From Bacteroidales bacterium (lineage in GTDB: Bacteria; Bacteroidota; Bacteroidia; Bacteroidales; VadinHA17), in the NCBI GenBank assembly GCA_022865305.1, contig JALHSP010000074.1:18413-82412 (forward strand): a stretch of DNA of 64,000 bases. Direction: 5' to 3'. This document shows, piece after piece, positions 3,824 through 61,500 of this stretch (positions are counted from its first letter, which is position 1; the number at the start of each line of letters is the position of its first letter). Under the pieces are notes generated by a model, which had not been told where the DNA came from, searched no databases, and saw nothing but the letters and a program-made list of their open reading frames with translations. The position numbers were made by a program, and so were the translations under genes.

Positions 3824-5545
3824 AAAGAGGCCGTCTCAAAACACAATTGAGGCGGCTTCTTAATTTTGAATTAGTTAAGCCTTTTTTCATTACTCGTGTT
3901 TTTCTGAGGATTCTTTTATGTTTTTAAGTAACAACAAGGATTTCTTGCTAATTCCTTACAGCAATTTTGCTCAATTTATGTGATAAAGCCAGTAAACCTG
4001 CTTCTATTTCTACCTTTTCAAGGCCTCGGAGCAAAAATCTCCTATAGCTTTTATTGCCTTTTATAATTCCAAAAACAGCTTCCACATCAACCGGTCGCTG
4101 GCTTCTATATTTTCTGCCTCGCTCGCTGCTTAGCCTCTCACGAATGATCGATTTATATCGGTTTAAGCTATGGTTTATTTCTATTCTTCTGTTACCCTTA
4201 CCCTTATTACAAGTTTCTTTCATTGGGCAATCATAACAGTTTTGTGCCTGATAAAGTCGATTTATTTGCTTATATCCATTATCAGTAATCCTTATTTGTT
4301 CTTTAATAAAGGGCATCTGTTGTCCCATAGGACAGATGTAATAATCATAATCCTCATAATATTGTAAATTCTCTGTTCTGTACGGATCTGTTTTCCATTT
4401 GGTGGTTTGTTCTTTATGGAAGTAACTATACTTTACAAAAGCCTCAACATCATTATTTTCTAGGTATTCATAATTTTCTAACGAACCGTATCCGGCATCA
4501 GCCACAAGGGTATCAGGCATCTTTCCAAGACTCTCTTTTAGAGATTCCATGTGGGTTTTAAGTGTAGTAGTGTCATTGGTAGTTTGATGGATGGTATACC
4601 CTGAAATGAACTGATTCTCTGTACTGATCTGCCAGTTGTATCCTGGTTTTAACTGGCCATTGAGTATATGGTCTTCTTTCATTCTCATGAAAGTGGCATC
4701 CGGATCTGTTTTTGAATAACTGTTACGATTACCCAGTGTTTTTTCCTGTTCTTAATATTTTTTAAGATTTTCAGGCCAGTTCTTTCGTGCATAGTCAAGC
4801 TTCTGTTTTACTTTCTTATTTACCGGCTTGCCTTTAAGCGCTTTATCGATACTTTCTATTGTTCGAATGATTGATTCCTGATCGATCATTTCAAAACTAT
4901 CAGGCTCATTATTCTCAAGCTCTTCCCTGGCTACTGTTTCTGCATAGGCCCATACTTCCTTAAGCTGTCTCTTTATCCACTCCTTGCTTTTTGTTATACT
5001 GCGCCCCCATACAAAAGTATAACGGTTGGCATTGGCTTCGATTTTCGTGCCATCAAGATAGGCCTCCTTCAATGTTATTATCCCTTTCTCAACTAGTAAT
5101 AAAACAACCTGACTGAATACCTCCTTAAGAACACCTTTCAACCTTTCACTCCTGAAGCGGTTTATTGTATTATGATCCGGGTAACTCATCCCGCTTAACC
5201 ACATAAAATGTACGTTCTGTGTTATTGCCTGCTCTATCTTCCTGCTCGAGTAGAGATTGGTTAAGTAACCATATACAAGTACCTTAAGCATAAGCCGGGG
5301 ATGATAACTCGAACATCCTCCTCCATTATACCTCTTTATTAATAAATCTATATCAAGACTGTCAATAATCTGATTTACAACTCTAACTGGATGGTTGGGA
5401 CTAAAGTCTTTAAAGACTATCTTTGTTTTATGTGTTTGCATACCTCAAGTTAAATTAACCTGAGGTCTTTGAGGGGGGAGGCATCCCCTCTCTTTCTGCC
5501 AGTTATCAACAATAAAAGAAGGTGCCCTTTTTAGACACCCTCTTT
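3824..5545 (-). mobile_element. IS1182-family insertion sequence (~1.72 kb) with imperfect terminal inverted repeats
   Basis: Left end AAAGAGGCCGTCTCAAAA (3824-3841) matches the reverse complement of the right end AAAGAGGGTGTCTAAAAA (5528-5545) at 15/18. It encloses the transposase reading frame. Target-site duplication cannot be read because the flanks are A/T runs. Confidence 0.6.
3948..5441 (-). pseudogene. IS1182-family DDE transposase interrupted by one in-frame TAA (4752-4754)
   Basis: ORFs 4752-5441 and 3948-4688 are in the same frame. Reading through the TAA gives ..ENLKKY*EQEKTLGNRNSYSKTDPDATFMRMKEDH.., which restores the family motif KTDPDATFM. The N-terminal DUF772-like part reads SYHPRLMLKVLVYGY. 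The C-terminal part reads GRKYRSQRPVDVEAVFGIIKGN. Confidence 0.8.
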
Positions 5546-15037: not shown

Positions 15038-15919
15038 TCAATAACCTTGTTTGTCAAACACAATTTTAAAAAATTCTTTTGTGAATCTTTCAGCACCATA
15101 CTTGTTAAAATGAGACAATCCAGCCCAGTCCTTGTTATAGTCAATATACTTGCAAAAGTCCTGTGAATTCAAATTATACAGCGAGGCCTGGGATCCATCG
15201 GAATAATGAATAGTATACGGGCCTATTCCGGAAACGTTTTGTGTCTCCCTTACCCCCGGCAGGTCTATAATAATAAATCCAATGCCATTTTGTGCACATA
15301 ATTCTGCAAGCCTGTTTATCCAGTACGCAGATTCAAACTTGGCAAAATCAAGACTTGTGCTTTTATACCCTGAATTATCAGGAATTGTTCTAAGGCTCTT
15401 CTTATGTCCAAATGTTACTGTGGTTTTCCTGTATTCACTTAATACAGCTTTTTTTAGCAGCTCCATTCCTGCCCAGTTAAATTTTGTAACAGGAATATCT
15501 TTGATCCCATATTTATGATCCTTCATTGTAAACTCAACAACCGGCTGTATTCCCTCGCCATGAAAATCTTCAAGATATGAGTTAACTCCTAAAATAACGA
15601 AACGAGGTTTACTTGGGTATTTTGTAAGATATTCGTTCAATTGTATATAGCCTGTCCTGACCGAACTTCCAACTAATGATAGATTGAAGGATTTAATTCC
15701 TGAATAGGTAAGCAACTCGGTGTCAAAAGCATATTCGGATTGACTGGCGCCTAAAACCAATAATTCAAAATCAGGGTTTTCAAACTTAAGGGATTGAAGT
15801 CTTTTTACAAAGTCCCAGTCAGTCAGCGCAATTGTAGCAAGAAATATGGAATTCACAATAACTGAAAACAACCCAAAGAACAGAATAAATAAGACTATTC
15901 TATTTATAATTATTTTCAT
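15038..15919 (-). CDS. second membrane-anchored SGNH-fold DltD-like protein
   Basis: About 50% identical to the 9947-10813 product (..FELLVLGASQSE.., GYIQLNEYLTKYPSKPRFVILG, GLSHFNKYGAERF). Immediately downstream of the second MBOAT. Confidence 0.7.
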   Translation of the reverse strand: MKIIINRIVLFILFFGLFSVIVNSIFLATIALTDWDFVKRLQSLKFENPDFELLVLGASQSEYAFDTELLTYSGIKSFNLSLVGSSVRTGYIQLNEYLTKYPSKPRFVILGVNSYLEDFHGEGIQPVVEFTMKDHKYGIKDIPVTKFNWAGMELLKKAVLSEYRKTTVTFGHKKSLRTIPDNSGYKSTSLDFAKFESAYWINRLAELCAQNGIGFIIIDLPGVRETQNVSGIGPYTIHYSDGSQASLYNLNSQDFCKYIDYNKDWAGLSHFNKYGAERFTKEFFKIVFDKQGY

Positions 15920-17439: not shown

Positions 17440-18639
17440 CTAACAGACTTTCCTGATACATTTCAATAATACTTCCAGTACTCTTTGCCGTTCTTCATCA
17501 GTCATGCCGGTGCCGGAAGGAAGACATAATCCATTTTGAAATAACCTTTCGGAGACCCCGCTAAGATAAGTCGGGTATACTGAGAAAACAGGCTGTAGAT
17601 GCATAGGCTTCCATAATGGTCTACTCTCAATATTATTCTCCTCCAACTGCTTCTGCAAATCCTCACGTGTAATTCCTGTTATTTCGGCATCGATAATAAC
17701 AGCAGTTAACCAGTGATTTGAAAAGTATGATTTATCAGGTTCTTCGAGAAATTTTAATCCTTGATATTTTTTCAGGTTTTCATAATAGAAGGAAAAATTT
17801 GATCTTCTTTGTTTTACTCTCTCATCAATAACCTCCATCTGCCCGCATCCAATTCCTGCAAGAACATTGCTCATCCGGTAATTATAACCGATCTGGCTAT
17901 GCTGATAATGCGGTGCTTTGTCCCGTGCCTGTGTCGCCAGAAATCTGGCTTTATCAATCATCTCTTTATCGTCTGAGATCAATGCTCCTCCTCCTGATGT
18001 TGTTATGATTTTATTCCCGTTGAAAGACAACACTCCCATTTTACCGAAAGTTCCAACTTGTTTCCCTTTATACTTACTGCCCAGGGCTTCCGCCGCATCT
18101 TCAATTACAGGTATATCGTATTTATTAGCTATAGCCATAATCCTGTCCATATTAGCTGGCATCCCGTATAAGTGAACAACAATGATTGCCTTGGGTAAGC
18201 GATGAGCGGTGAGAGGTGAGTGGTGAGATTTCCCTTGTGCCCTGCGCTCTGCGCCCTGCGCCCTGCGCCCTTTAATGGCTTCCTCAAGCAAGTCAGGGTC
18301 CATATTCCACGTTCCAGGTTCACTGTCAACCAGTACCGGTGTTGCTCCCAGGTAAACAATCGGATTTATAGTTGCTGAAAAAGTAAAGGAGGAAGCAATA
18401 ACTTCATCTCCAGGTTTGACTCCCAGCAGAATAAGGGCCAGGTGAATAGCCGCCGTTCCGGAGCTTAATGCCACAACATGCTTTATGCCACAATACCTGG
18501 CAATAGCTTCTTCAAAGGCATCTACATTCGCCCCAAGCGGAGCTATCCAGTTGGTGTCGAAAGCGACCTTAATATATTTTTGTTCAGCACCTCCCATATG
18601 CGGGCTTGAAAGGTAGATTCGTTTCTTATTTGTCAACAT
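17440..18639 (-). CDS. DegT/DnrJ/EryC1/StrS family PLP-dependent sugar aminotransferase carrying an in-frame ~25-aa repeat-encoded insertion
   Basis: Family pattern throughout (LSSGTAAIHLAL, IEDAAEALGS, SFNGNKIITTSGGGAL). Residues 124-148, GRRAQGAERRAQGKSHHSPLTAHRL, interrupt the usual ..EEAIK/..KAIIVVHLYG junction. Confidence 0.9.
   Translation of the reverse strand: MLTNKKRIYLSSPHMGGAEQKYIKVAFDTNWIAPLGANVDAFEEAIARYCGIKHVVALSSGTAAIHLALILLGVKPGDEVIASSFTFSATINPIVYLGATPVLVDSEPGTWNMDPDLLEEAIKGRRAQGAERRAQGKSHHSPLTAHRLPKAIIVVHLYGMPANMDRIMAIANKYDIPVIEDAAEALGSKYKGKQVGTFGKMGVLSFNGNKIITTSGGGALISDDKEMIDKARFLATQARDKAPHYQHSQIGYNYRMSNVLAGIGCGQMEVIDERVKQRRSNFSFYYENLKKYQGLKFLEEPDKSYFSNHWLTAVIIDAEITGITREDLQKQLEENNIESRPLWKPMHLQPVFSVYPTYLSGVSERLFQNGLCLPSGTGMTDEERQRVLEVLLKCIRKVC
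18194..18272. repeat. two abutting heptamer arrays inside the DegT coding sequence: (GGTGAGN)x5 then (GCGCCCT)x5
   Basis: Read directly: ggtaagc gatgagc ggtgaga ggtgagt ggtgaga tttccct t gtgccct gcgctct gcgccct gcgccct gcgccct. Confidence 0.85.
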
Positions 18640-18680
18640 TTGTGATAATTTGTTATTTCGGTGAATGCTAGTGCAAAGAG

Positions 18681-18743
18681 GTGAGCGGTGAGAGGTGAGC
18701 GGTGAGCGATGAGCGGTGAGTTATGAGCAATGAGTTTTGAGTC
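18681..18743. repeat. heptamer array (GTGAGCG-type, 9 units), left arm of zipper cassette A
   Basis: gtgagcg gtgagag gtgagcg gtgagcg atgagcg gtgagtt atgagca atgagtt ttgagtc. The core ggtgagcgatgagcg (18701-18715) is the exact reverse complement of 19160-19174. Confidence 0.85.
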
Positions 18744-18758
18744 TATAACAAATAGTAT

Positions 18759-19133
18759 TTAAGAACACCACTTATCAGGATGGTTGATCATGGATATCAG
18801 CATCTTGCGAACTTCATCATATTCATTCATTATTTCATCATGGATTTCATTTGAGATATACTTACAATCTCGTGAATAATCCAACCAGACTTCAGTTTCA
18901 TATTCTTCTCCTAATGAATCAGATAATTTATTTACAAAAGATTTGATATAACGCTTCTTTGCCCATGCTTCTGCAATATTTGATGTTACTGACCTCGACG
19001 AGCGACGAATCTGATCGATCAGAGAATACTTTTCTTCTTTTGGAAAATCTTTTGATATCTCAAATATCTTCATCGCCAGCTTATAAGCTTTCTGATATAC
19101 AATTAAATCCTTGAAACTATTTATCTGACTCAT
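18759..19133 (-). CDS. four-helix-bundle protein (23S rRNA intervening-sequence protein family, PF05635/TIGR02436-like)
   Basis: 124 aa. Family pattern FKDLIVYQKAYKLAMKIFEISKDFPKEEKYSLIDQIRRSSRSVTSNIAEAW. Confidence 0.85.
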   Translation of the reverse strand: MSQINSFKDLIVYQKAYKLAMKIFEISKDFPKEEKYSLIDQIRRSSRSVTSNIAEAWAKKRYIKSFVNKLSDSLGEEYETEVWLDYSRDCKYISNEIHDEIMNEYDEVRKMLISMINHPDKWCS

Positions 19134-19146
19134 AAATTGTAATCTA

Positions 19147-19195
19147 TCTCATTTCTCATCGCTCATCGCTCACCTCTCATCTCTATATTCTCACC
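19147..19195. repeat. heptamer array (TCTCATC/GCTCACC-type, 7 units), right arm of zipper cassette A
   Basis: tctcatt tctcatc gctcatc gctcacc tctcatc tctatat tctcacc. This is the complement flavour of 18681-18743. Confidence 0.85.
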
Positions 19196-19215
19196 GATGT
19201 AAAACAGGGCATACA

Positions 19216-23182: not shown

Positions 23183-23245
23183 AGGTATTCAGTATTCAGT
23201 ATTCAGTATTCAGTATTCAGTCATCTAATTACCGATCACGGATTA
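23183..23245. repeat. heptamer array: GGTATTC followed by four perfect AGTATTC units, then attaccg-type units; left side of cassette B
   Basis: ggtattc agtattc agtattc agtattc agtattc agtcatc taattac cgatcac ggattac. Confidence 0.85.
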
Positions 23246-23624
23246 CTGTTCTTAATGCAAAAGGTTGAGGATTTATCAATCATTTTTTGAGGCATTCTTC
23301 CGATGGATTCACATTTATGCAATAACCGCTCAGTCTCTTCTGAATCAATATATTGACACTCTTCTGATACCTCAATCCAATGCTGGGTTTCCATCTGTTC
23401 AGCATCTGCATCTGTCAGCTTTGAAATAAAATGCATCTCGTATCTTCTTTTCCCCAAGCCTCGGCGATTTGCGCACCAATCGATCTTGAAGATCTTCTTA
23501 TCTGGTCAGTTAAGGAATATTTTTCTTCTTTTGGAAAGTTTTTACTCACAAAATATATTGCCTTAGCAACTTCCCGTGAAAGTTTATATACCTCAAGATC
23601 CCGAAAACTTGTCACATACACCAT
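23236..23624 (-). pseudogene. four-helix-bundle (23S rRNA IVS protein family) gene split by a 1-nt frameshift in a G4A4 run
   Basis: ORF 23415-23624 (..KEEKYSLTDQIRRSSRSIGAQIAEAWGKE) continues in another frame as ORF 23236-23457 (GKRRYEMHFISKLTDADAEQMETQHWIE..). The switch lies at ttttcccc, 23447-23454. Confidence 0.8.
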
Positions 23625-37553: not shown

Positions 37554-38660
37554 TCAGTATACTATTTTACTGATAATATCTACTATACGTTGAGCTGCTT
37601 TGCCATCCCACATTGGTGGTATTACCCCTCTCTTCCATTCACTATTAAATAGCTTTGTAAGTGCAGGTTTAATACAATCAGGATTAGTGCTAATCAGCTC
37701 ATTTGTCCCTAAAGAAACAGTTTCCGGCCGTTCCGTATTATCTCTCAAGGTGATACATGGTACGCCCATAACTGTAGTTTCCTCTGTTATACCCCCTGAA
37801 TCGGTGATGACAGCTTTTGCGTGTTGTACAAGATAGTTGAATTCAAGGTAGCCGAGCGGCTGGAGAAGGTGTAAGTTGTAAGCAGTGAGTAGTGAGTGGT
37901 GAGATATAAGGTCATTAATTTTTTTAGCTGTCCGCGGGTGAACCGGGAAAATGATAGGAATATTCTGTGATGATTCAATGATAGCTTCCAGTAACGCCTT
38001 TAGCTGTAAGTCGTTATCAACATTATTTGGCCTGTGAAGTGTAATTACGAGGTAATTACCTTCCTGAAGTCCGAATTCTTCCCATATCTCTGGCTTCCGA
38101 AACCTAGTCTGGTTGGCTAGAAGCGTGTCAATCATTACATTGCCGACAAAGTAAATACGTTTCTCAGGGACTCCGGCTTTTCGTAAATTATCATTTGCTG
38201 TTTCACTTGTTGTAAAGAAATAATCGGCTAGACAGTCTGTAACCATCCGGTTGATCTCCTCAGGCATTGTAAGATCAAAAGATCGCAGGCCACCTTCAAC
38301 ATGAGCTACCCTGGTAATCATTTTCTTGGCCACAATTGCACATGCCATAGTAGAGGTCACATCTCCGACAACAATCACCAGGTCAGCAGGATTTAATAAT
38401 AAATACTTTTCATAAGCAATCATGATTGCTGCAGTTTGCTCAGCCTGTGTTCCTCCTCCACAACCCAGGTTGACATCAGGCGAAGGAATGTTGAGTTCTT
38501 TGAAGAAAGCGTTACTCATCTTCTCATCATAATGCTGACCTGTATGAACTAACCTATAAGAAATATCATGTCCTTTCTCCTTCGCTTCATGAATTGCATT
38601 AATTATGGGTGCAATCTTCATGAAGTTTGGTCGTGCACCGGCAATGAGATGGAGTTTCAT
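37554..38660 (-). CDS. wecB: UDP-N-acetylglucosamine 2-epimerase (non-hydrolysing)
   Basis: MKLHLIAGARPNFMKIAPI, HTGQHYD, VVGDVTSTMACA, HVEGGLRSFD, PEEINR, VITDSGGITEETTVMGVPCITLRDNTERPETV. Confidence 0.92.
   Translation of the reverse strand: MKLHLIAGARPNFMKIAPIINAIHEAKEKGHDISYRLVHTGQHYDEKMSNAFFKELNIPSPDVNLGCGGGTQAEQTAAIMIAYEKYLLLNPADLVIVVGDVTSTMACAIVAKKMITRVAHVEGGLRSFDLTMPEEINRMVTDCLADYFFTTSETANDNLRKAGVPEKRIYFVGNVMIDTLLANQTRFRKPEIWEEFGLQEGNYLVITLHRPNNVDNDLQLKALLEAIIESSQNIPIIFPVHPRTAKKINDLISHHSLLTAYNLHLLQPLGYLEFNYLVQHAKAVITDSGGITEETTVMGVPCITLRDNTERPETVSLGTNELISTNPDCIKPALTKLFNSEWKRGVIPPMWDGKAAQRIVDIISKIVY
37871..37905. repeat. heptamer array (GTRAGNN x5) inside the wecB coding sequence
   Basis: gtaagtt gtaagca gtgagta gtgagtg gtgagat encodes ISHHSLLTAYNL on the minus strand. 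Confidence 0.75.
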
Positions 38661-38697
38661 AGTTCTCTGGATGGCATTTATTACTGATAAATTATAT

Positions 38698-38781
38698 GAC
38701 CGAAGACCGAAGATCGATGTATTAGGTTCAACTCCTGTCTTCCGTCTTCCGTCTTCCGTCTTCCGCCTTCAACCTTCCTCA
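38698..38781. repeat. empty zipper hairpin: (GACCGAA)x3, 14-nt loop, (TTCCGTC)x5-7
   Basis: gaccgaa gaccgaa gatcgat | gtattaggttcaac | tcctgtc ttccgtc ttccgtc ttccgtc ttccgcc ttcaacc ttcctca. Six of 7 positions pair per unit. The right arm runs into the stop codon and last 7 codons of 38769-40940. Confidence 0.8.
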
Positions 38782-40940
38782 ACCTGCTTCAACCCGTGAA
38801 TCTGATCGAGAACAGAAAGTGTAAGTCTCGTCATTTCAATATCAGTTTCAAATGGAAGTATAAGGGACTCTTCATTCTTAAGTTTCTTTGATAGTTCATT
38901 AATTAATACTTTATGACCTTTGTCAGCCTGTTTTAGCTTCATCCCCGTCTCATCACAATTAAAGGTTTGAAGCTCAATGAAATCATTGATTACCAGGGAA
39001 CTGCCGTTTGTAAATATTTCAATCCTCTCTTTCTCCATATCTTTTCCACCTATGGAAGTATAGGTCAGAACGCCTATTGATCCATTCTCAAACGCCATTG
39101 TTACTATTACATTATCCTCTGATTGTATGATTTTTCCATCAGTTGGTATATGGGCCGCATATATCTCCCTTACCTTGCCTGATGCCAGGTAAGCAATCAA
39201 ATCTATAAAATGACACACTTCACCTACTATTCTTCCGCCGCCTTCCTCCAGATCCTGTACCCAGATATCAGGAGGGAAATAACCTGCATTTACACGATAG
39301 TTTATAACAACAGGCGTTCCGCTATTCTTAATTACGTGTTTTACCTTCTGGATTAACGGTGAATACCTCCGGTTGAAGCCAACTGTTGCAACCACATGCG
39401 GATTTTCCCGTATTGCTCCTTCAATCATTGACAATTCATCATGGTTCATCGCCAGTGGTTTTTCAACAAGCACATTCTTCCCTGATCTGATTGAATCAGT
39501 AACCAAAACAGCATGAAGATTATGCCGTGTGCCAATAACAATCAGGTCAATGTCAGGATCACTTATTAACTGCCTATAGTCTGTTGAAACATAATTTACT
39601 TTATATTTCTCACTGACTGTTTTTGCAGAGGCAGGGGTTCTCTCGGCAATACCTATTAATTCATATTCTTCCGGCATATTCAATATATTCGACAGATGAT
39701 TTCTTTGAATAAAGCTGCCGACCCCTATAATACCAACTCCTATTTTCCCAGAAGTAATTTTCCGAGGATGTACTTCCATACGGCTTACCGGAACAACCTT
39801 CTCCTCGTGCAAATAATTAAATAAGCACGAAATATTTCCTCCAGGATTTTCAACCAGCGTATTATATGCTTCGGCTGCCTGATCAATATTAAATCTATTT
39901 GATATAAGAGGATCTACCTTCACCTGACCCGTAGCAAGAAGCCTTATAAATTCCATCATATTACGGTTTTCGGTCCAACGGACATAACCGATTGGGTAAT
40001 CTATTCCTTTTAGTTCATATTGATTATCATACCTTCCTGGTCCGTAAGATGTTGACATTACAAAATCAAGTTCCTTCGAATACATTGCCTCGCGCTCAAG
40101 ATTCATTCCAACTGATCCAACAATAACAACCCGTCCTTTTTTCCGGCAGGCTTCCATGGCCTGATTCGCCGGTTCAGAATGTTTTGTTGCAGCATAAATT
40201 ATAACTGCATCAGCACCATAGCCATGAGTTGCATCCTTTATTTTTTGAACAAGGTTCTTGTCATTTGCATCAAAACAATGATCGGCCCCCACTTCTTTCG
40301 CAAGTTCAAGACGCAATGGATTGAGATCTGTGCCAATTACGACCAGACCCCATGTTTTTGCTATCTGAACAGCTATTAGTCCCAGGAGGCCTAATCCGAT
40401 AATTACAATTGTCTCACCAAAAGTTACATTGGCACGCCTTATACCCTGCATCGCTATGGAACCTATAGTCGTAAAACCTGCAGATTCAAAAGAGACTTCA
40501 TCAGGTATTTTAACAGCCAGGTTGACCGGTACAGAAGTAAACTCAGCATGTGCTGCAATACCGGCACCGGCGCACGCAACACGGTCTCCCACATTAAAAT
40601 TTGTCACCAGGTGCCCTTTTGCTATAACAACTCCGGCATTGCTATAACCAACAGGTTTAAATATAACAGCCTGTTCAGCCGGATTTAATTTATTTTTTAT
40701 CGCTTTTATTGCTGAATTGAAACCTTTTTCCTGTATTATCCGGTTTACTTTATCCCACAATAATTTCTTTTCATGCAGTTTTTCGGACAGTGTCACATCC
40801 CCCTTCTTCATGCCCATTGTCTCAGTCCCTGTACTGATAACACTGGTATAGACTGCAACCAGCAACTCATTATCTCCGGGAGTTGGCACAGGTGCATCCA
40901 GCGCATTGAGTCCTTTATTTGTAGCAAAAATTTGTTTCAT
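38769..40940 (-). CDS. bi-domain oxidoreductase: N-terminal MDR/zinc-type alcohol dehydrogenase fused to a Gfo/Idh/MocA NAD(P)-binding oxidoreductase
   Basis: The N-terminal half has GDRVACAG.. and the Rossmann motif IIGLGLLGLIAVQIAK. The C-terminal half has GVGIIGVGSFIQRNHL, LVEKPLA and EVCHFIDL. Confidence 0.85.
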   Translation of the reverse strand: MKQIFATNKGLNALDAPVPTPGDNELLVAVYTSVISTGTETMGMKKGDVTLSEKLHEKKLLWDKVNRIIQEKGFNSAIKAIKNKLNPAEQAVIFKPVGYSNAGVVIAKGHLVTNFNVGDRVACAGAGIAAHAEFTSVPVNLAVKIPDEVSFESAGFTTIGSIAMQGIRRANVTFGETIVIIGLGLLGLIAVQIAKTWGLVVIGTDLNPLRLELAKEVGADHCFDANDKNLVQKIKDATHGYGADAVIIYAATKHSEPANQAMEACRKKGRVVIVGSVGMNLEREAMYSKELDFVMSTSYGPGRYDNQYELKGIDYPIGYVRWTENRNMMEFIRLLATGQVKVDPLISNRFNIDQAAEAYNTLVENPGGNISCLFNYLHEEKVVPVSRMEVHPRKITSGKIGVGIIGVGSFIQRNHLSNILNMPEEYELIGIAERTPASAKTVSEKYKVNYVSTDYRQLISDPDIDLIVIGTRHNLHAVLVTDSIRSGKNVLVEKPLAMNHDELSMIEGAIRENPHVVATVGFNRRYSPLIQKVKHVIKNSGTPVVINYRVNAGYFPPDIWVQDLEEGGGRIVGEVCHFIDLIAYLASGKVREIYAAHIPTDGKIIQSEDNVIVTMAFENGSIGVLTYTSIGGKDMEKERIEIFTNGSSLVINDFIELQTFNCDETGMKLKQADKGHKVLINELSKKLKNEESLILPFETDIEMTRLTLSVLDQIHGLKQVEEG

Positions 40941-54534: not shown

Positions 54535-56688
54535 TTATTTATTAAATATTGTGAAATCAATCCGTCTGTTAAGTCTTCTGTCAGTCGGATAGGTATTCGA
54601 GGCAATCGGTCTGTTTCCGCCATATCCTTTTGCTGTCAGGCGTTTGCTACTGATGCCTCTGTTGATCATATAGTTTACTATCACCTGGGCTCGGGATTGG
54701 GACAGTGACAGGTTATTTGACGAAACTCCCTGGTTATCAGTGTGCACGCCTATCTCAAGTCCTATACCTGGGTATTTATTCATCAGCATCACAACCTGAT
54801 CAAGCATGATATATGCGCGGGTGGTCAAACTGTTGTTGGCATCAAAATATGTGTCAGTCAGAAGGCTATTATTCTTTTCGAGAATATACAATTCCTTTTC
54901 TGCAGGATCTTTGAGTATAAAGATTCGAACCCTGGCATCACTATGCCCGCTTGCTACCATCTCATTATATGCCGGGTAGGTGGCCATCAGGTTCATTTGC
55001 TCGTCAACAATATAGCTCCAGGTACCGGCTTCGGCATCAAATAGTTCCTTCACAGTGTACTTCGCAGGTACATTTCTGAAAAAGGTGCTGTAAAGATTAG
55101 TCTTGGCTCGAGATGATAATAATACCACCTGGAATACTGCCTCCCTGCTGAAATCTGTCTCAGCAGAATAGAGCCCATTAACTTTAACATTCTCAAAATG
55201 CCTGATGTCAGTAAGATTCTGCCTCACAACTGGCCTTCCGGCTATATATGAAGCCCTATCCTGCTCACTTCGGAACACAATCACTTTTTTTGTTACCGCC
55301 CTTTTGACAACATCTACTGTAGTCTGCGACTTTAATGTTAGTCCCAGTCTGACATTATATTCTCCGCTTTCACCAAACGTATGGTTGACTCTCTCTCCAT
55401 ATTCTGTGGTACCATCACCAAAGTTCCAGAAATAGCCTGTAACATTATATCCGGGACAGTATGACTTTAATCCATCAAATTCAACTGCCTCACCGATAAT
55501 AGCATAATCAGGAGAACTAATAAACGGTTGATCATTATCAACGATCTCAATATCATACGTGAGTTTTCGGAAGAAGAGGTTTCCAGTTCTCCTGTCGGTG
55601 ATATCAAGGTTTATGCTGTATCTTCCGGGGCCCGGGAAACAGTGCCTTACATTTGTGCCGTACACCTTTGAATCATCCCCGAAATCCCATTTATACCTTA
55701 GTCTCAGCGTGTCAATCTGTATTGATCCTGTGTCTGAGATAGTAAAACAATACTGGTTTTCTTTCTGAGGCTCGCTTAACCAGACCTGGAGTAGATCTGA
55801 GTTGAACCGGAATATATCTATAGTTTTCCCCCTGTTCGAAGAGAAGTATCCTTCATTCTTATTTGCATGAGTAATAATGCCGAAATCATCGAACTCCGAG
55901 TTTACAGGCGCATCTAGCCTTACTGGCGGATACCATCCAGTGCCTTGCTGCTTCGTTACAAAAATATCCTTCCCTCCTAGTCCCTCGTGACCATCGGATG
56001 AGAAGAAAAACTCACCAGCGTTGTTTATAAAGGGATAAGATTCATTCCCCTTGGTGTTAACGAGTGGACCAAGGTTCACAGGGTCTTCCCAATAACCGTT
56101 TCTCCATTGACTGTAGTAAATATCTGCACCTCCGTAACCATCGGGCCTGTCAGATGCGAAGTACAATCTTTTACCATCGGGAGAGAGACATGGCATGGTA
56201 ATATTATACCACTCATTATTGAACCCCATCTCATGGATCTTTGTCCATTTTTCACCCTCCAGAACTGCCCTGAAAATGCCAAGCTTATTTCTTAATGTAG
56301 AAAGCTGACGGTAATTACCATCAACCTGCAGATTTCTGGAATAGTATATTGTATCACCTCTGCTGCTAAAGGTTACTGGCCCGTCGTTAAAGTGTGTCTT
56401 TAAACTCTTTGAAAACAATCCTGATTTTCGCCATGCAACCTTACCTGTCGTATCAATATAGTTGATCTTAACCTGGCCTCTGTCCTGGGAAGAAGAGTAA
56501 TTTGTCAACGAACCTGACTGACGGTTTGTGCTGAAAACTATTCCGTTCTTATAATAAACAGGACAGAATTCGTCATATTTCTTCGAGCTGAAAGGGGCTT
56601 TTGTCACCGTATATGTCTCTTGCTGCCCTGTAGATAACTGGTTAAGGGTGAAGCTTATCAATATAATTAGTAGCAACTTGAAATTCAT
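54535..56688 (-). CDS. OmpA-family protein with TolB-like beta-propeller repeats and PKD domains
   Basis: ATG at 56688 gives the signal MNFKLLLIILISFTLNQL. The track's extra 23 aa are a translation of the heptamer array. WD40-like PD40 repeats are present (LSPDGKRLYFASDRPDGYGGADIY). Two PKD-like modules are present (WDFGDDS.., WNFGDGT..). The C-terminal OmpA domain reads TDNQG..NLSLSQSRAQ..RRIDF. Confidence 0.85.
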   Translation of the reverse strand: MNFKLLLIILISFTLNQLSTGQQETYTVTKAPFSSKKYDEFCPVYYKNGIVFSTNRQSGSLTNYSSSQDRGQVKINYIDTTGKVAWRKSGLFSKSLKTHFNDGPVTFSSRGDTIYYSRNLQVDGNYRQLSTLRNKLGIFRAVLEGEKWTKIHEMGFNNEWYNITMPCLSPDGKRLYFASDRPDGYGGADIYYSQWRNGYWEDPVNLGPLVNTKGNESYPFINNAGEFFFSSDGHEGLGGKDIFVTKQQGTGWYPPVRLDAPVNSEFDDFGIITHANKNEGYFSSNRGKTIDIFRFNSDLLQVWLSEPQKENQYCFTISDTGSIQIDTLRLRYKWDFGDDSKVYGTNVRHCFPGPGRYSINLDITDRRTGNLFFRKLTYDIEIVDNDQPFISSPDYAIIGEAVEFDGLKSYCPGYNVTGYFWNFGDGTTEYGERVNHTFGESGEYNVRLGLTLKSQTTVDVVKRAVTKKVIVFRSEQDRASYIAGRPVVRQNLTDIRHFENVKVNGLYSAETDFSREAVFQVVLLSSRAKTNLYSTFFRNVPAKYTVKELFDAEAGTWSYIVDEQMNLMATYPAYNEMVASGHSDARVRIFILKDPAEKELYILEKNNSLLTDTYFDANNSLTTRAYIMLDQVVMLMNKYPGIGLEIGVHTDNQGVSSNNLSLSQSRAQVIVNYMINRGISSKRLTAKGYGGNRPIASNTYPTDRRLNRRIDFTIFNK

Positions 56689-56728
56689 GGTTTTCGTTTT
56701 ACTAGATAGAAGTGCCTGGTTATTTAAA

Positions 56729-56878
56729 GTTGGCAGTTGGCAGTTGGCAGTTGGCAATCTTTGTTTCTTGTGTATATTATTTCAGGGGAAAATTTCAGGA
56801 ATTTCTATTATAATCCTGATCTATTACTTAAAATCTAAAATTTAACTTTTTGCCAACTGCATTTTGCCAACTGCAATT
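56729..56878. repeat. empty zipper hairpin: (GTTGGCA)x4, ~94-nt loop, TGCCAAC-type arm
   Basis: Four perfect gttggca units at 56729-56756, and tgccaac tgcattt tgccaac tgcaatt at 56851-56878. Two 10-bp perfect matches gcagttggca/tgccaactgc. Confidence 0.75.
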
Positions 56879-56953
56879 TTTTGCTAAGGTAAGTAATTAA
56901 GTCGCGTTAAGAATCGAAAGTAATGTGCACTGCTTTAATGCTTAATAATCCGC

Positions 56954-57069
56954 CTAGTGCCGCGGAACATATTTCTCAGGATTTTCCACCATATGATTCA
57001 ACATCCTGCCTACTTCTTCCAAATTGTCAATAAGTTCCAGATATTCTTCGTGAGTGATATAGTTACACT
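56954..57069 (-). pseudogene. 3' remnant (~38 codons) of a four-helix-bundle gene, truncated exactly at the left arm of cassette C
   Basis: Own translation gives KCNYITHEEYLELIDNLEEVGRMLNHMVENPEKYVPRH*. This aligns with the C-terminus of the 18759-19133 product (DCKYISNEIHDEIMNEYDEVRKMLISMINHPDKW). Confidence 0.6.
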
Positions 57070-57123
57070 TAGAATGCCTAGAGTGCCTAAAGTGCCTAGA
57101 GTGCCTAAAGTTGATTAAGTTTG
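57070..57123. repeat. 9-mer array (TAGAGTGCC/TAAAGTGCC type), left arm of cassette C
   Basis: tagaatgcc tagagtgcc taaagtgcc tagagtgcc taaagttga ttaagtttg. agtgcctaaagtt (57100-57112) is the exact reverse complement of 57528-57540. Confidence 0.8.
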
Positions 57124-57126
57124 AAG

Positions 57127-57513
57127 TTATTGTAGTTTTGAAGTTTTACCAATCGAGGTAAAAATTGCCAGTAATTCTATTGCTTCGTTCATTACAGGTT
57201 CCGTTTTTTGTGAGTTGATCCAGTTAAGATCAATTATAATTTCCAGCCAATAGATAGTCTCACTGGCTTCGCTTTCACAAATTCTTATTTTATTTATAAA
57301 ATCAGCTTTACTTCTTGCCCGGTTGGCTTCTCTGTAATTTGCACCAACACTTGTTCCTGCCTTTGTGAATTGATTCCTAATTATTTTCCCTTCAGGTGAT
57401 CCTGGTAAAAGAACAGATAGTTTTATAACACTGATAGCAAATTTCTTCGTTCTTCCCTCCAGTTGCCTGGCAAACTCTTTATTATCCATAACTTCAATTT
57501 TAATAACTCCCAA
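57127..57513 (-). CDS. four-helix-bundle protein (23S rRNA intervening-sequence protein family)
   Basis: 128 aa. ..FAISVIKLSVLLPGSPEGKIIRNQFTKAGTSVGANYREANRARSKADFINKIRICESEASETIYWLE.. is the typical family pattern. Confidence 0.85.
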   Translation of the reverse strand: MGVIKIEVMDNKEFARQLEGRTKKFAISVIKLSVLLPGSPEGKIIRNQFTKAGTSVGANYREANRARSKADFINKIRICESEASETIYWLEIIIDLNWINSQKTEPVMNEAIELLAIFTSIGKTSKLQ

Positions 57514-58577: not shown

Positions 58578-61500
58578 TTATCTTCTTATAACAATATAAC
58601 CACCAATTGCATTGCTGTTTGTCGGTTTCAGAATGAAGAAATAAGTGTCATCAGGAAGAGGATTGTTATTATAGTCAACTCCATCCCATTCGTTTTGATA
58701 ATCTCTGTTCAGGTAAACCTGTGCTCCTCTCCTGTCAAATACCACGAGTTCAGTTTTTCCGAGTGTCTCAATTCCACGTAATACGAAGTAATCATTTTTC
58801 CCATCCATATTAGGGGTAATGAGAGTCGGAATGACCAGGTTATTAACAGTAATTATTATATAGTCTTTTGCCGGAGAACATACTCCATTAGTTACTGTCC
58901 ACAAAAGAATGTTTTCACCTAGTTGAAGTCCGGTTACATATGTTTCTGAAGAATCAGCATCAGAGAATTCAGCGGAACCTGATTCGAGAGACCATATCCC
59001 GGTCTCATGAATATCCAGGTCAGCTGCTTCCATTTTTGTTTCAAACAGATATTCCAATACTCTGTCAGGACCTGCATCAGCGACAGGTTTATTCCAAATC
59101 TCAACTTTTACCGAATCAATATTTTTACATCCATATATGTCAGTTAATGTAACCTTATACATGGTAGTTGTTTCCGGAGAAGCTACCGGATCAGATATAC
59201 CAGGATTATCCAACATTGTTTCCGGATCCCAGAAGAAGGTCCCGGTACCAAGTGCATGAAGCTGGACAGATCCTCCTTCACAGAGGATGGTATCTCTGCC
59301 GGCATCAATCGATGGTAAACTTCTGAATATTACCCTGATTATATCTGTAGATTTGCATGTACTGTTTGATTCAGTCCAGGCAAAGTCATATGTACCAAAC
59401 TGGTCCACCGTGACAGTAGCATCAGGCTGATTCGGATCCGGACTAAAGATAGCATTCCCGGGTCCGCTGGATTTAGTCCATGTGCCTGTACCGGAACCAG
59501 GTGTTGCATTCAGGCTGAAATCAAGGTCGCATTCTTCCCCGCCATTTCCCGCATCTGCTGCCGGTGCTTTAATGAAAATAACATTTGTCGAAGCAATATC
59601 TGAACATGTTCCGTTTACTTCTGTCCATGTGAAGGTATAAGATCCATAAGCTGATACAGTAACTTTAGCATTGGGTGCGTTAGCACTTGGAGTGAATGTT
59701 GCTGTTCCTGATCCTGCGGTCTTGGTCCATGTACCGACTCCGACACTTGGAACTGCATTAAGGAAAAATTCCGGACCACAGTTATTGCCGCCTGTTCCGG
59801 GATTAGCATTTGGTTGCTCGTAAAAGTTAACTGTAACTGCAGCACTTTTTGAACATACCACATTTAATTCTGTCCATGTAAATATATAAGTCCCGTATTC
59901 AGATACTGTAACTGTTGCTGTTGGTGAATTTGCACTTGGTGCGAATTCTGCTGTCCCGGGTCCGCTGGTCTTTGTCCAGGTTCCTGTACCAATGTTTAGA
60001 ACCGCACTGAATTTGAAGTTCAGATCGCACTCGTTGCCTCCGGTTCCGGGATTAACTACAGGCTGTCTGTAGAAGTTGACTGTAATTGATGAACTGCTTG
60101 AACAGGTTACATTGACTTCAGTCCAGGTAAAGGTATATGTCCCATATGCTGAAACTGTAACCGTTGCAGTTGGGCTGTTAGCATTTGGTGTGAACGTTGC
60201 AGTGCCCGGTCCGGCAGTTTTAGTCCATGTACCGACTCCAATACTAGGCACTGCATTAAAGATGACTGTCAGATCACACTCATCTCCTCCTTTACCGGCA
60301 TTTGCCAATGGTACTGCATTGACAGTCACAACAGCAGTACCTGTTTGTGTCTGTGAACAACCTGTGGTACTTGCATCCCGGACATTTACCAGTGCATAAG
60401 TAAATATTCCTGAGATACCTGTCGGAACTGGCAATGTAACACTGTTACCTACTGTTGTTGTGATGGTCTGGTTACTGCCATTATTGATCTTATAAGTGAA
60501 TGTATAAGGTGCTGTGCCTGATGCTCCCGTGAAAGCTATATTTGGAGAGGCTGCATCTTTACATACTGTCGTGGTTCCGCTTATGGTAGCCGTTGGCAAT
60601 GGATTAACCGTTATAGTAGCGCTGCCTCCCTGTAGCTGTGAACAGCCTGAAGTACTTCCGTCCCGGACACTTACCAATGTATAAATAAATGTTCCTGCAG
60701 TACCTGTAGATACTGCTACAGTAACACTATTACCACTTGTTGTTGTAACGGTCTGATTACTGCCACTATTGATCTGATAAGTAAAGGTATAAGGTGCTGT
60801 ACCTGATGCTCCCGTGAAAGTAATATTCGGAGAAGCTGCATCTTTGCATACCACTGTGGTTCCGCTGATTGATGCAGTTGGTAATGGATTAACAGTAACA
60901 ATTGCACTGCCTGTTTGTGCCTGCGAACAGGTTGTAATACTTGCATCCCTGACACTTACAAGTGAATATGTAAATGTACCTGCTGTACCGGTGGGTACTG
61001 ATACAGTAACACTGTTACCTGATGTTGTTGTAACTGTCTGGTTGCTTCCACTGTTAATGGTATAGGTGAAAGTATAAGGTGCTGTACCATTTGCTCCTGT
61101 GAAAGTAATATTTGGTGAAGCTACATCTTTACATATCACTGTCGTTCCACTTATCGTCGCTGTTGGTAATGGATTGACTGTTATTGTAGCACTGCCACCC
61201 TGTATCTGCGAGCATGCCGTGGTGCTTCCATCACGAACGCTTACCAGCGCATATGTAAATATTCCAACTGTACCTGTGGGTGCCGGAACCGTCACACTAT
61301 TGCCTGAGGTTGTAGTAACAGTCTGATTGCTTCCGCTATTTATTGTGTAAGTAAAGGTATAGGGTGCTGTACCATTTGCTCCGGTGAATGTAACATTCGG
61401 CGAGGCTGCATCTTTACATACTGCTGTTGTTCCGCTTATGGTTGCTGTTGGTAATGTATTAACTGTTACTACTGCACTACCTGTTTGTGTCTGTGAACAA

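Follow-up and report, generated by a model that had tools for sequence, protein, structure and literature searches.

An over-representation of heptamer tandem repeats in some bacterial phyla has been recognised since 2007, and its mechanism is not established (PMC4679880, PMC4692102). In the Coxiella intervening sequence (IVS), an S23p ORF and a terminal inverted repeat are found together with two to three tandem heptamers, GACAGAT, the copy number of which is strain-variable (PMC4990558). Heptanucleotide elements of Geobacter are also found 'within genes' (PMC2700814), and it has already been argued for the TAACTGA repeat that stop codons limit the orientation in which a repeat can occupy an ORF (PMC4679880). 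In Xanthomonas and Nostoc, G-quadruplexes (G4) are formed by G-rich heptamer repeats that preferentially have four units (PMC4692102), and the heptamer switch of neuO has tracts of 3-53 units, most often 20, with 65.6% of the genomes being OFF (PMC13001214).

The locus analysed here represents a compact case for the heptamer-repeat problem, carrying the same flavours as the arms of PF05635 'intervening-sequence' cassettes, and such flavours are also translated in single hotspot loops of two capsule-locus enzymes in many Bacteroidales lineages. The features examined in the window, by which we mean the whole 64-kb stretch of DNA that was analysed, are listed in Table 1. As a favoured explanation, the 78 nt containing the two tracts are probably translated, tolerated heptamer-repeat DNA in the one surface loop of a PglE-type aminotransferase that tolerates indels.

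Table 1. Coordinates of the repeat tracts, their host genes and cassette A in the window
Feature	Coordinates	Strand	Evidence
Aminotransferase ORF, 399 aa, hosting both tracts	17440..18639	-	PF01041 E=1.6e-105
Segment replacing 2 codons of nearest relatives, residues 133-149, net +45 nt / +15 aa	18193..18243	-	Codon-level comparison with L168 and L167
Tract 2, ~5 units CTCACCN (mRNA sense) = GGTGAGN on + strand; encodes SHHSPLTAHRL	18194..18227	-	Tandem Repeats Finder (TRF) period 7, 4.9 copies, consensus GGTGAGC
Spacer between tracts, 11 nt, mRNA sense ACAAGGGAAAT	18228..18238	-	Direct sequence reading
Tract 1, ~5 units GGGCGCA (mRNA sense) = GCCCTGC/GCGCCCT on + strand; encodes GRRAQGAERRAQG	18239..18271	-	TRF period 7, 4.7 copies, 92% matches, consensus GCCCTGC
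Cassette A gene-proximal arm, GGTGAGN units	18680..18742	+	TRF 5.9 copies; inner end 18680 is 40 nt upstream of aminotransferase start codon
Cassette A PF05635 gene (23S rRNA intervening-sequence protein / bAvd-like)	18759..19133	-	PF05635 E=1.4e-35
Cassette A distal arm, CTCAYCN units on + strand	19147..19196	+	TRF 5.4 copies
In-ORF tract of GGTGAGN flavour, same frame, ISHHSLLTAYNLH	37870..37905	-	Inside UDP-GlcNAc 2-epimerase ORF 37554..38660, 19 kb away

Two heptamer tracts in the aminotransferase gene

The first-pass annotation had reported two 7-nt arrays in frame inside a DegT aminotransferase ORF, and this was borne out by TRF and by translation, which placed two neighbouring arrays at 18194-18271 in frame within the minus-strand ORF. 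It had also described the one array as immediately followed by the other; the two are indeed adjacent, but they are separated by the 11-nt spacer, making that wording slightly loose. Both arrays are imperfect (81% TRF matches in tract 2) and merge into a single run, 18196-18274, in a period-7 autocorrelation scan. Perfect GCGCCCT units number three, as counted earlier, and lie at 18251-18271, the longest perfect run being three units. The segment leaves the ORF open, as had been stated, and 18193-18270 encode, in frame, residues 124-149 (GRRAQGAERRAQGKSHHSPLTAHRLP), the peptide of which includes a 7-aa duplication, RRAQGAE followed by RRAQGKS.

Shuffled sequence folded as well as the in-ORF segment (z -0.5 and -0.2), which is therefore not a hairpin, in agreement with the earlier reading. 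Tracts 1 and 2 are not complementary to each other, and neither a palindromic nor a terminal-inverted-repeat structure was found in the segment; a hairpin, or the scar of one cassette, was ruled out on the basis of this non-complementarity and the fold scores. Gene-less hairpins elsewhere in the window do fold (38690-38800, z -3.1).

Among solved structures, those of C. jejuni PglE (1o61 and 4ztc) were the closest to the host ORF (E ~1e-103), and the AF2 model (pLDDT 88) had 4ztc as its top Foldseek match (TM 0.83/0.86, 46% identity), indicating, by closest similarity and by predicted fold alike, that the host gene encodes a PglE-type sugar aminotransferase of the DegT/DnrJ/EryC1 family. The segment is positioned between a helix (DPDLLEEAI) and a strand (KAIIVVHLYG). 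The loop, measured between WNMDPxLLE and KAIIxVHLYG, was 13 aa long in 120 of the 149 loci, 15 aa in the nearest clade and 30 aa in the window, confirming the earlier impression that it exceeds the family norm. The structural alignment that had been proposed for placing the insertion was also informative, a 20-residue gap opening exactly at the segment in the PDB alignment against PglE. In the AF2 model, a helix spans residues 115-134, followed by pLDDT values of ~63-65 over residues 131-150 and of below 50 for residues 139-144, with residues 135-148 being of low confidence.

The in-ORF segment is in frame and stop-free and occupies a structurally permissive site. Among 120 orthologs, 105 of the 105 rare-insertion columns were in this loop and 0 elsewhere. 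Loop lengths of 15 and 22 aa were both common among orthologs, the 15-aa loop being fixed in length, with its RRAQGAG/E peptide kept, across 60 protein clusters; in a further 22 clusters the loop is longer, and the baseline loop reads KDRIAKGKKP. Because a rough NJ tree scatters the long loops, a single origin and recurrent gain are inseparable on it. Random insertion with selection does not account for the gathering of every insertion in one loop when the termini and the other loops receive none, which is a strain on the favoured explanation.

Repeat flavours in the window and in relatives

Period-7 arrays numbered eight in the window, against 0-1 for each other period from 4 to 12, and none was obtained in 100 Markov simulations. 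The GGTGAGN flavour was present at four sites (18194, 18680, 19155 and 37884; 0 expected) and constitutes a dispersed repeat family; GCGCCCT does not within the 64-kb window, where tract 1 has no other copy and where, as had been noted before, GCGCCCT has no complement elsewhere. The claim that the GGTGAGN flavour is that of the cassette A arms was likewise upheld, with 12 matches against 0 expected and with the in-ORF CTCACCN tract matching a cassette A arm over 25 nt at 96%.

Cassettes A, B and C each have a PF05635 ORF between inverted repeats able to form a long stem. In cassette A, 48 nt of the gene-proximal arm are 79% complementary to 19148-19195 (inverted repeat I1), and the RNA duplex of arm with arm was calculated at -65 kcal/mol (z -7.7); for the distal arm paired to the in-ORF tract, the value was -43 kcal/mol (z -6.2). 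The in-ORF tract is arm-like only, without an ORF, and is not a member of the PF05635 cassettes. Cassettes of this kind, with inverted short-period arms, adjoin the aminotransferase gene in the window and at loci L009 and L099, and with the window excluded they were enriched near long-loop genes (2/13 versus 1/155 loci, Fisher p=0.016). For flavour sharing, a crude 6-mer cluster test was superseded by a masked BLAST control of the in-ORF tract against nearby arrays, because the former was too permissive for A-rich flavours; the result was strong for the window, marginal for L003 and L014, and not significant for L009, and at L099 the in-ORF flavour is AAAGGTT but that of the cassette arms is GCGTARR. 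Flavour sharing of the in-ORF tract with nearby arrays is thus statistically weak outside the window, which also strains the favoured explanation. With regard to a DGR link via the bAvd-like domain, no reverse transcriptase was found among the ~25 annotated of the ~50 ORFs of at least 100 aa, and no adenine-specific pattern was found between the cassette arm and the in-ORF tract.

The tract in the epimerase gene has 14 of 14 nt in common with the DegT tract, in the same frame. An alignment with the archaeal structure 4neq had suggested that this tract brought no length change, but this was overturned by the orthologs: the HPRT-PLGY loop was 18 aa in 44 of the 113 orthologs, 23 aa in the window, 5 aa more than the 18-aa baseline, and as long as 51 aa elsewhere, with peptides of 7-aa periodicity.

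A comparison with orthologs for absence of the 78 nt, as the first-pass annotation had proposed, gave a divided answer: tract 2 and one tract 1 unit were lineage-specific, but the rest of tract 1 was present in all relatives read. All five 'no-insert' relatives of which the DNA was read (L167-L171) carry, at the same place, 4-5 units RCAGGGC that encode RRAQGAG/E in a 15-aa loop and, judged from these sequences, four tract 1 units are ancestral to the clade. The extra segment had been bracketed too widely, since GRRAQGAE and the closing H-R are also present in the closest orthologs, and the lineage-specific excess of ~45 nt comprises one further tract 1 unit and the CTCACCN tract. The latter is missing in L167-L171 but is found in L002 and, in the form CTCAACG, in L172. 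A composite of (GRGCKCA)x5, spacer, (CTCAMCN)x4-5 and GCTTACCN joined to AAGGC at the same 3' junction is common to the window and both of these loci, which speaks against a scar of recent local origin. The idea of an insertion scar made of two fused half-arms was not supported, the GCGCCCT half being old (5/5 relatives) and the composite being shared; a fresh window-specific insertion of all 78 nt was ruled out by the DNA of the same relatives.

Within tract 1, the window and L168 were identical at 32 of 33 nt, compared with 73% in the remaining gene, and the codons CGC, CAG and GGC were identical in 6/6 lineages despite a GC3 of ~0.4. The DNA-level conservation of tract 1 far exceeds coding need and is not predicted for a purely neutral passenger, a further strain on the favoured explanation. 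In other orthologs, unrelated 7- or 8-nt arrays were found at the same loop (AAAGGTT, AACCTCA, AAGAGACA, GGTCTTGC and GGGGAGA); in L172, two separate aminotransferase genes have the GAGCTCA flavour, and the flavours THNSLLT, RRAQGA and SELRAQ recur in different genes and genomes. Only two contigs, one from a MAG and one from Logan (L001), carried the window allele itself, and no closer allele was found among GTDB representatives, the best matches in which were only ~65% identical, or in a metagenome scan.

Origin and role of the segment

The favoured explanation is that the segment was built in two layers. An old GGGCGCA tract would already have formed the 15-residue loop (RRAQGAGHRV) of the closest clade, and the sub-lineage with the window, L002 and L172 would have gained one unit and a second tract, CTCACCN, of the same flavour as the inverted terminal arrays of the IVS-like PF05635 cassettes. 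Template switching, gene conversion or MITE-like arm movement may have copied array DNA from one array-bearing site to another, or expanded it, with whole-unit slippage acting alongside. Purifying selection would retain additions of a multiple of 3 nt, in the stop-free orientation, at sites where additional disordered residues are harmless; GGTGAGN in the sense orientation brings a TGA into frame within three units, whichever frame is read, whereas CTCACCN and GGGCGCA cannot do so. All 13 of the 13 distinct long loops were in frame and stop-free (chance probability ~(1/3)^13), as expected for translated DNA. The product would be an enzyme with a longer helix and ~14 floppy residues, presumably still active, in which the segment would be neutral. 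No regulatory role is needed to explain the segment.

An origin in situ, by slippage from native purine-rich loop codons (GAC CGC A.. / AAAGGTAAAAAACC) in 21-nt (3-unit, 7-aa) steps and with no cassette transfer, is unlikely, yet has several observations in its favour: the first GGGCGCA unit lies exactly at the GACCGCA (D-R-I) of the baseline loop, the peptide contains the 7-aa duplication, the AAAGGTT units of L099 and L096 resemble the native AAAGGTAAAAAACC, and 15- and 22-aa loops are both common. The resemblance to the cassette arm would then be convergent, because few heptamers are stop-free and benign in all three frames. However, the CTCACCN tract matches the adjacent cassette arm closely and the epimerase tract exactly and in frame, the same peptide flavours recur across genes and genomes, and PF05635 cassettes are enriched beside long-loop genes. 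It might also be supposed that the long charged loop was itself selected, for docking of a glycan-assembly partner, solubility, or evasion of phage or inhibitors, with the repeats serving as raw material. Retention of the RRAQGAG/E peptide in 60 clusters and the repeated lengthening of the corresponding loop in two pathway enzymes would suit such an adaptation, which is nevertheless very unlikely, considering that the inserted peptides are unrelated between lineages and of low confidence in AF2 and that conservation extends to the codon level, beyond the amino-acid level.

Another group of explanations assigns a role to the nucleic acid. The tracts could be cis sites in DNA or mRNA that tune glycan gene expression, putatively as a binding array for a PF05635 oligomer, as a duplex with the 5' arm of cassette A, within one polycistronic transcript, that RNase III would cleave, or as a G4, but we consider this quite unlikely. 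It is consistent with the conservation of tract 1 beyond coding constraint, the pairing of the cassette A distal arm with the in-ORF tract, the ~5 units per array throughout and the canonical G4 motif (G3N4 units) in L169, L170 and L171. Against it, the cognate cassette arm pairs much better and lies closer, the flavours at the site are wholly different between lineages, and the G4 motif is non-canonical in L168, L002 and the window, which has five G3 runs, with one loop that is too long (11 nt) for a canonical motif, and no G4 in the MFE structure; the G4 was rejected as a conserved feature, being canonical in just three of the relatives checked. In a wider version, which is similarly improbable, the heptamer tracts, including those within ORFs, would be functional cis sites of a system around IVS-like PF05635 (Avd-like) cassettes, recognised or copied by cassette or host factors. 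Such a system would explain the one recurrent landing loop per glycan-pathway enzyme, the codon-level conservation of tract 1 where synonymous sites are otherwise saturated, and the enrichment of adjacent cassettes at array-bearing genes, and capsule gene expression could then be linked, through the in-ORF tract, to the processing of cassette RNA or to the binding of protein. The first-pass annotation had proposed a contingency locus, in which slippage, by adding or removing one 7-nt unit, toggles amino-sugar synthesis. The unit is not a multiple of 3, it lies inside a surface-polysaccharide ORF (17440..18639), three perfect units are present, and there are precedents in the heptanucleotide switch of neuO (PMC13001214) and in the heptamer copy number that varies in the IVS between Coxiella strains. 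However, no out-of-frame length or stop codon was found at the site in any of the 166 related loci, including the 13 distinct long loops, so that OFF alleles did not accompany ON alleles in related genomes. The arrays are not long and near-perfect (81% and 92% matches, 4.7-4.9 copies), by contrast with the 3-53 units and 65.6% OFF genomes of neuO; the alleles L003/L004 and L005/L006, from independent samples, had identical tract lengths within each pair; and the 15-aa tract length is fixed over 60 protein clusters. The switch is unsupported because 0/166 loci were out of frame and the perfect run reaches only three units, and we consider it highly improbable.

Relation to known systems

If the link to the cassettes is true, it would connect rRNA intervening sequences, in their origin, with a broader class of small mobile elements. 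It would also mean that selfish repeats can reshape enzyme loops, in the manner of the Rickettsia RPEs, in a phylum prominent both in the gut and in the environment. Were the tract a neutral passenger and no more, the locus would be a tidy, ordinary case of tolerated repeat DNA. Caution is also required in annotation, in that low-complexity peptides like RRAQGA, SHHSPLT and SLSPSVP, when found in enzymes of Bacteroidales, represent repeat DNA that is translated.

The arrays are similar to bacterial heptamer SSRs (cyanobacterial STRR; TAACTGA of Beggiatoaceae, Cyanobacteria and Bacteroidetes; GGGNATC G4; Geobacter four-unit elements) in having ~4-6 tandem units and in being strongly over-represented, but descriptions of the known repeats place them mostly between genes and propose a regulatory role. 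Elhai et al. reportedly described, in 2008, small dispersed repeats inside heptamer arrays. The heptamer-repeat literature examined contained no description of one enzyme loop serving as a recurrent in-frame hotspot, nor of any connection with the arms of PF05635 cassettes. The neuO VNTR, in the O-acetyltransferase of E. coli K1, is likewise a 7-nt repeat in the coding region of a surface-glycan enzyme, with three units corresponding to seven residues; its tracts, however, are long and perfect and OFF in most genomes, whereas the present locus has three perfect units and no OFF allele in 166 loci.

With the 23S rRNA IVS carrying an S23p/PF05635 ORF (Coxiella, Leptospira, Salmonella), cassettes A, B and C share the bounding by long-stem inverted repeats, but they are not located in a 23S rRNA helix and sit between protein-coding genes of a polysaccharide locus, and the in-ORF tract differs from an IVS in being arm-like, without an ORF, and translated. 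The locus also resembles Rickettsia palindromic elements (RPEs) and intragenic MITEs, which are dispersed repeats in unrelated metabolic genes, in frame, translated and fold-compatible (PMC10969869). RPEs, however, are ~150-bp palindromic units with a conserved peptide, whereas the repeats here are short tandem 7-nt arrays that are not palindromic, the flavours of which vary and the insertions of which concentrate at one loop per protein.

Two heptamer arrays in the aminotransferase gene

The presence of two heptamer arrays within the DegT aminotransferase ORF, as reported in the first-pass annotation, was confirmed by Tandem Repeats Finder, by a period-7 autocorrelation scan, in which both formed a single 79-nt run (18196-18274), and by the match of the 399-aa ORF containing them (17440..18639, minus strand) to PF01041 (DegT_DnrJ_EryC1, E=1.6e-105). 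The stretch 18193-18270 encodes residues 124-149, GRRAQGAERRAQGKSHHSPLTAHRLP. In mRNA sense, GGGCGCA units (tract 1; GCGCCCT on the plus strand, with three perfect units at 18251-18271) are followed by CTCACCN units (tract 2; GGTGAGN on the plus strand). The identical protein is carried by a Bacteroidales MAG record of NCBI and by a Logan assembly of SRR19116071; a one-off product of assembly is thereby excluded as the source of the allele. Eight period-7 arrays were counted in the window; each of the other periods between 4 and 12 gave 0-1, and 100 Markov simulations produced none.

Folding of the 78-nt segment was not stronger than that of shuffled sequence (z -0.5 and -0.2), which indicates, in agreement with the earlier reading, that the segment is not a hairpin, and a search of the window confirmed that GCGCCCT has neither a further copy nor a complement there. 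The GGTGAGN flavour does recur in both arms of the nearby cassette A, a PF05635 (23S rRNA intervening-sequence protein / bAvd-like) gene flanked by inverted arrays, and at 37884-37903 (12 matches in the window versus 0 expected).

The best solved relatives of the protein were structures of C. jejuni PglE (1o61 and 4ztc, E about 1e-103). Placement on a PglE-type structure, as had been suggested, located the insertion in a 20-residue gap of the 4ztc alignment between residue E118 of PglE and the strand KKPKALILTHLYG, and the HMMER match to most other PDB homologues was broken into two stretches at this loop. An AlphaFold2 model, with 120 orthologs as the alignment input, had a mean pLDDT of 88, a helix at 115-134 and a strand at 149-155, with 4ztc as its top Foldseek match (TM 0.83/0.86); mean pLDDT was 65 for residues 131-140 and 63 for 141-150, with residues 139-144 below 50. 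Taken together, the alignment gap and the model indicate that the segment extends a helix on the surface and places a floppy connector ahead of a core strand. The surrounding polysaccharide locus includes MBOAT, AMP-binding, Bac_transf, polysaccharide deacetylase, flippase-like and UDP-GlcNAc 2-epimerase genes.

Arrays, cassettes and hairpins in the window and in related loci (L numbers) carrying the orthologous aminotransferase; same-site arrays lie at the loop site
Feature	Sequence	Positions	Description
Tract 2, GGTGAGC consensus	window	18194-18227	period 7, 4.9 copies (Tandem Repeats Finder)
Tract 1, GCCCTGC consensus	window	18239-18271	period 7, 4.7 copies, 92% matches (Tandem Repeats Finder)
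Cassette A	window	18680-19196	intact gene 18759..19133; arms pair over 48 nt at 79% complementarity; RNA duplex -65 kcal/mol
Cassette B	window	23185-23685	gene in two ORFs, 23415..23624 and 23236..23457
Cassette C	window	57070-57540	gene 57127..57513; inverted arms of 9-/16-nt units (TAGAGTGCC / TCCCAACTTTAGGCAT), not heptamers
Gene-less array hairpin	window	38698-38794	GACCGAA x3 with GTCTTCC x5; fold z -3.1
Gene-less array hairpin	window	56728-56879	AGTTGGC x4 with GCCAACT x2
PF05635 cassettes with array arms beside aminotransferase	L009	1-640 and 4038-4590	
PF05635 cassette with array arms beside aminotransferase	L099	3640-4110	
Same-site array	L099, L096		AAAGGTT
Same-site array	L131		AACCTCA
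Same-site arrays	L009		AAGAGACA + GTCCCNCA
Same-site array	L021		GGTCTTGC
Same-site arrays	L005		GGGGAGA + GGGCTCA
Same-site arrays	L003		GGCGCAGA + CCGCATA

Layering and conservation of the loop in relatives

The loop, measured between the anchors WNMDPxLLE and KAIIxVHLYG, had 13 aa (xAIKDRIxKGKKP) in 120 of 149 loci and 30 aa in the window, and is thus longer than the family norm, as had been claimed. Among the 120 closest protein clusters, 60 had a 15-aa loop, 36 one of 13 aa and 22 one of 18-67 aa, and all 105 rare-insertion columns of the 120-sequence alignment fell in this loop, with 0 elsewhere. In each of the five 15-aa "no-insert" relatives examined as DNA, RRAQGAG/E was encoded by a heptamer tract of 4-5 units (AGGCGCA GGGCGCA GGGCGCA GAGCGCA in L168 and GGGCGCA GGGCACA GGGCACA GGGCACA in L169; the same units are also readable in the RCAGGGC register), indicating that the GCGCCCT half is ancestral to the clade. 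The excess of the window over these relatives is 45 nt, consisting of one extra unit (AGGGAAA) and the CTCACCN tract, and its residues 133-149 stand in place of two codons. The 78-nt insertion originally described is thereby reduced to this excess. Furthermore, L002 and L172 share the window architecture, [GRGCKCA]x5, a spacer and [CTCAMCN]x4-5, together with its 3' junction (GCTTACCN followed by AAGGC), indicating that the composite is homologous in at least three lineages; with one half ancestral, a local scar of two fused half-arms does not account for it. With the loop removed from the alignment, a rough NJ tree scattered the long loops, and the sequences neighbouring the window in it had loops of 13-15 aa; this tree fits a single origin with loss as well as repeated gain or conversion. 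Two copies of an element of about 29 nt (CCACCTYCGCAAAGCTYCGGTRGGCRAWG) were also observed in L002 (6360-6440), nested in frame in tract 2 of the loop, and recall the small dispersed repeats that Elhai reportedly described in 2008 as inserted into heptamer arrays in cyanobacteria.

An on/off switch of the aminotransferase by gain or loss of units through slippage, as envisaged in the first-pass annotation, would be mechanically possible with 7-nt units within an ORF. However, out-of-frame alleles were found in 0 of 166 loci, array-bearing alleles sampled twice (n=2) were identical in length, the 15-aa tract was of stable length over 60 clusters, and the tract is short and imperfect, which makes such a switch very improbable. 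The known heptanucleotide switch of neuO has 3-53 perfect units, with 65.6% OFF genomes (PMC13001214).

Tract 1 was identical between the window and L168 at 32 of 33 nt, while the gene outside the tract was 73% identical, and only 50% so at third positions of codons. The CGC, CAG and GGC codons of tract 1 were the same in all six lineages, although GC3 of the gene is only 0.36-0.42. Synonymous sites in the remainder of the gene are near saturation, unlike those of tract 1. Ordinary concerted evolution is an awkward explanation, because slippage of a single unit breaks the frame. It is possible that conversion within the tract, re-seeding from a family located at other places in the genome, or a function at the nucleic-acid level underlies this conservation. 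A G-quadruplex motif was canonical in three relatives only and not in the window. The distal arm of cassette A, predicted to be capable of pairing with the tract inside the ORF (-43 kcal/mol, z -6.2), has a cognate arm that pairs more strongly and lies nearer.

A second in-frame tract, CTCACYN at 37870-37905, lies inside the UDP-GlcNAc 2-epimerase ORF (37554..38660), and its peptide, ISHHSLLTAYNLH, matches SHHSPLTAHRL of the aminotransferase in both flavour and frame, with 14 of 14 nt identical at the start. The epimerase orthologs have one hotspot loop: 44 of the 113 sequences show the 18-aa baseline form, and the others carry 19-51 aa. The inserts in this loop show 7-aa periodicity (THNSLLTTHN, SLSPSVP, RRAQGA); from these peptides, we infer an origin in heptamer DNA. 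Small PDDEXK_3 (PF13366) genes, another cassette-like kind, are wedged among epimerase genes in L167 (8430-8807) and L171 (5502-5879).

Cassette arms as a putative source of the segment

The loop segment was in frame and stop-free in 166 of 166 loci, including all 13 distinct long loops, unlike what is expected of a segment cut from the mRNA or left untranslated, and this indicates that the tract is translated. GGTGAGN read in sense yields TGA at unit offset 2 and in all three frames within three units, whereas CTCACCN and GGGCGCA permit no stop; the two tracts of the GGTGAG family that lie inside ORFs, in the aminotransferase and the epimerase, both have the stop-free orientation, which fits a stop-codon filter. 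The translated frame and this orientation suggest that the segment is repeat DNA of the cassette-arm family. Such DNA was probably copied or expanded into the older tract of a single permissive loop and retained since its total length was a multiple of three and the extra residues were harmless. The copying would have involved template switching, gene conversion or MITE-like arm movement, together with whole-unit slippage, of which a 7-aa duplication (RRAQGAE followed by RRAQGKS) is one trace.

The three PF05635 genes of the window each lie between inverted short-period arrays. The split gene of cassette B indicates a frameshifted pseudogene, and its arms consist of (GTATTCA)x5 and roughly complementary TACTGAT/TACCGAT units. 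A possible C-terminal remnant of a further PF05635 gene was observed at 56900-57070. The first gene-less hairpin overlaps the stop and last codons of ORF 38769..40940, and the other is situated immediately upstream of what is probably the true start of ORF 54535..56757. A very large ORF (58578-63992, 1804 aa) that runs off the window is made up of approximately 11 tandem repeats of a 285-nt (95-aa) unit with about 78% identity (Tandem Repeats Finder, 60309-62570 and 63115-64000) and is probably a repetitive surface protein.

PF05635 cassettes directly adjoin the aminotransferase in the window and on other Bacteroidales contigs (L009 and L099), and PF05635-like ORFs occur in 2 of the 13 loci with long loops versus 1 of the 155 with short loops (Fisher p=0.016; 0.0018 including the window). 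Outside the window, flavour sharing between loops and nearby arrays was weak in a masked BLAST control. The two in-ORF arrays of L009 look by eye like the two arm flavours of its upstream cassette, the BLAST control being not significant. In L172 (5028-5854), a PF05635 cassette was observed in which one arm has 14 GCGTAAA units and a small gene for a GIY-YIG nuclease (5221-5484) interrupts the ORF, indicating nested selfish elements. The loop flavour of L172, GAGCTCA, also occurs in a second DegT-family aminotransferase gene of this contig (14466-15704), with an in-ORF (AGAGCTC)x4 tract at 15360-15403.

Relation to known systems

The papers that were read contained no description of a single-loop hotspot recurring over lineages and in two enzymes, of a layered, partly codon-frozen tract, or of a PF05635 cassette-arm link outside rRNA. 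The ingredients of the window cassettes are found again in the Coxiella IVS, which combines an S23p ORF with a terminal inverted repeat of 28 bp and with tandem GACAGAT units, 2-3 in number depending on the strain (PMC4990558). Over-represented heptamer SSRs of Cyanobacteria, Bacteroidetes, Beggiatoaceae and Geobacter are of the same sequence kind (PMC4679880, PMC2700814, PMC4692102), and the Geobacter elements were noted "within genes" (PMC2700814). Closest in behaviour, by virtue of in-frame insertion, are the Rickettsia palindromic elements and other intragenic MITEs (PMC10969869).
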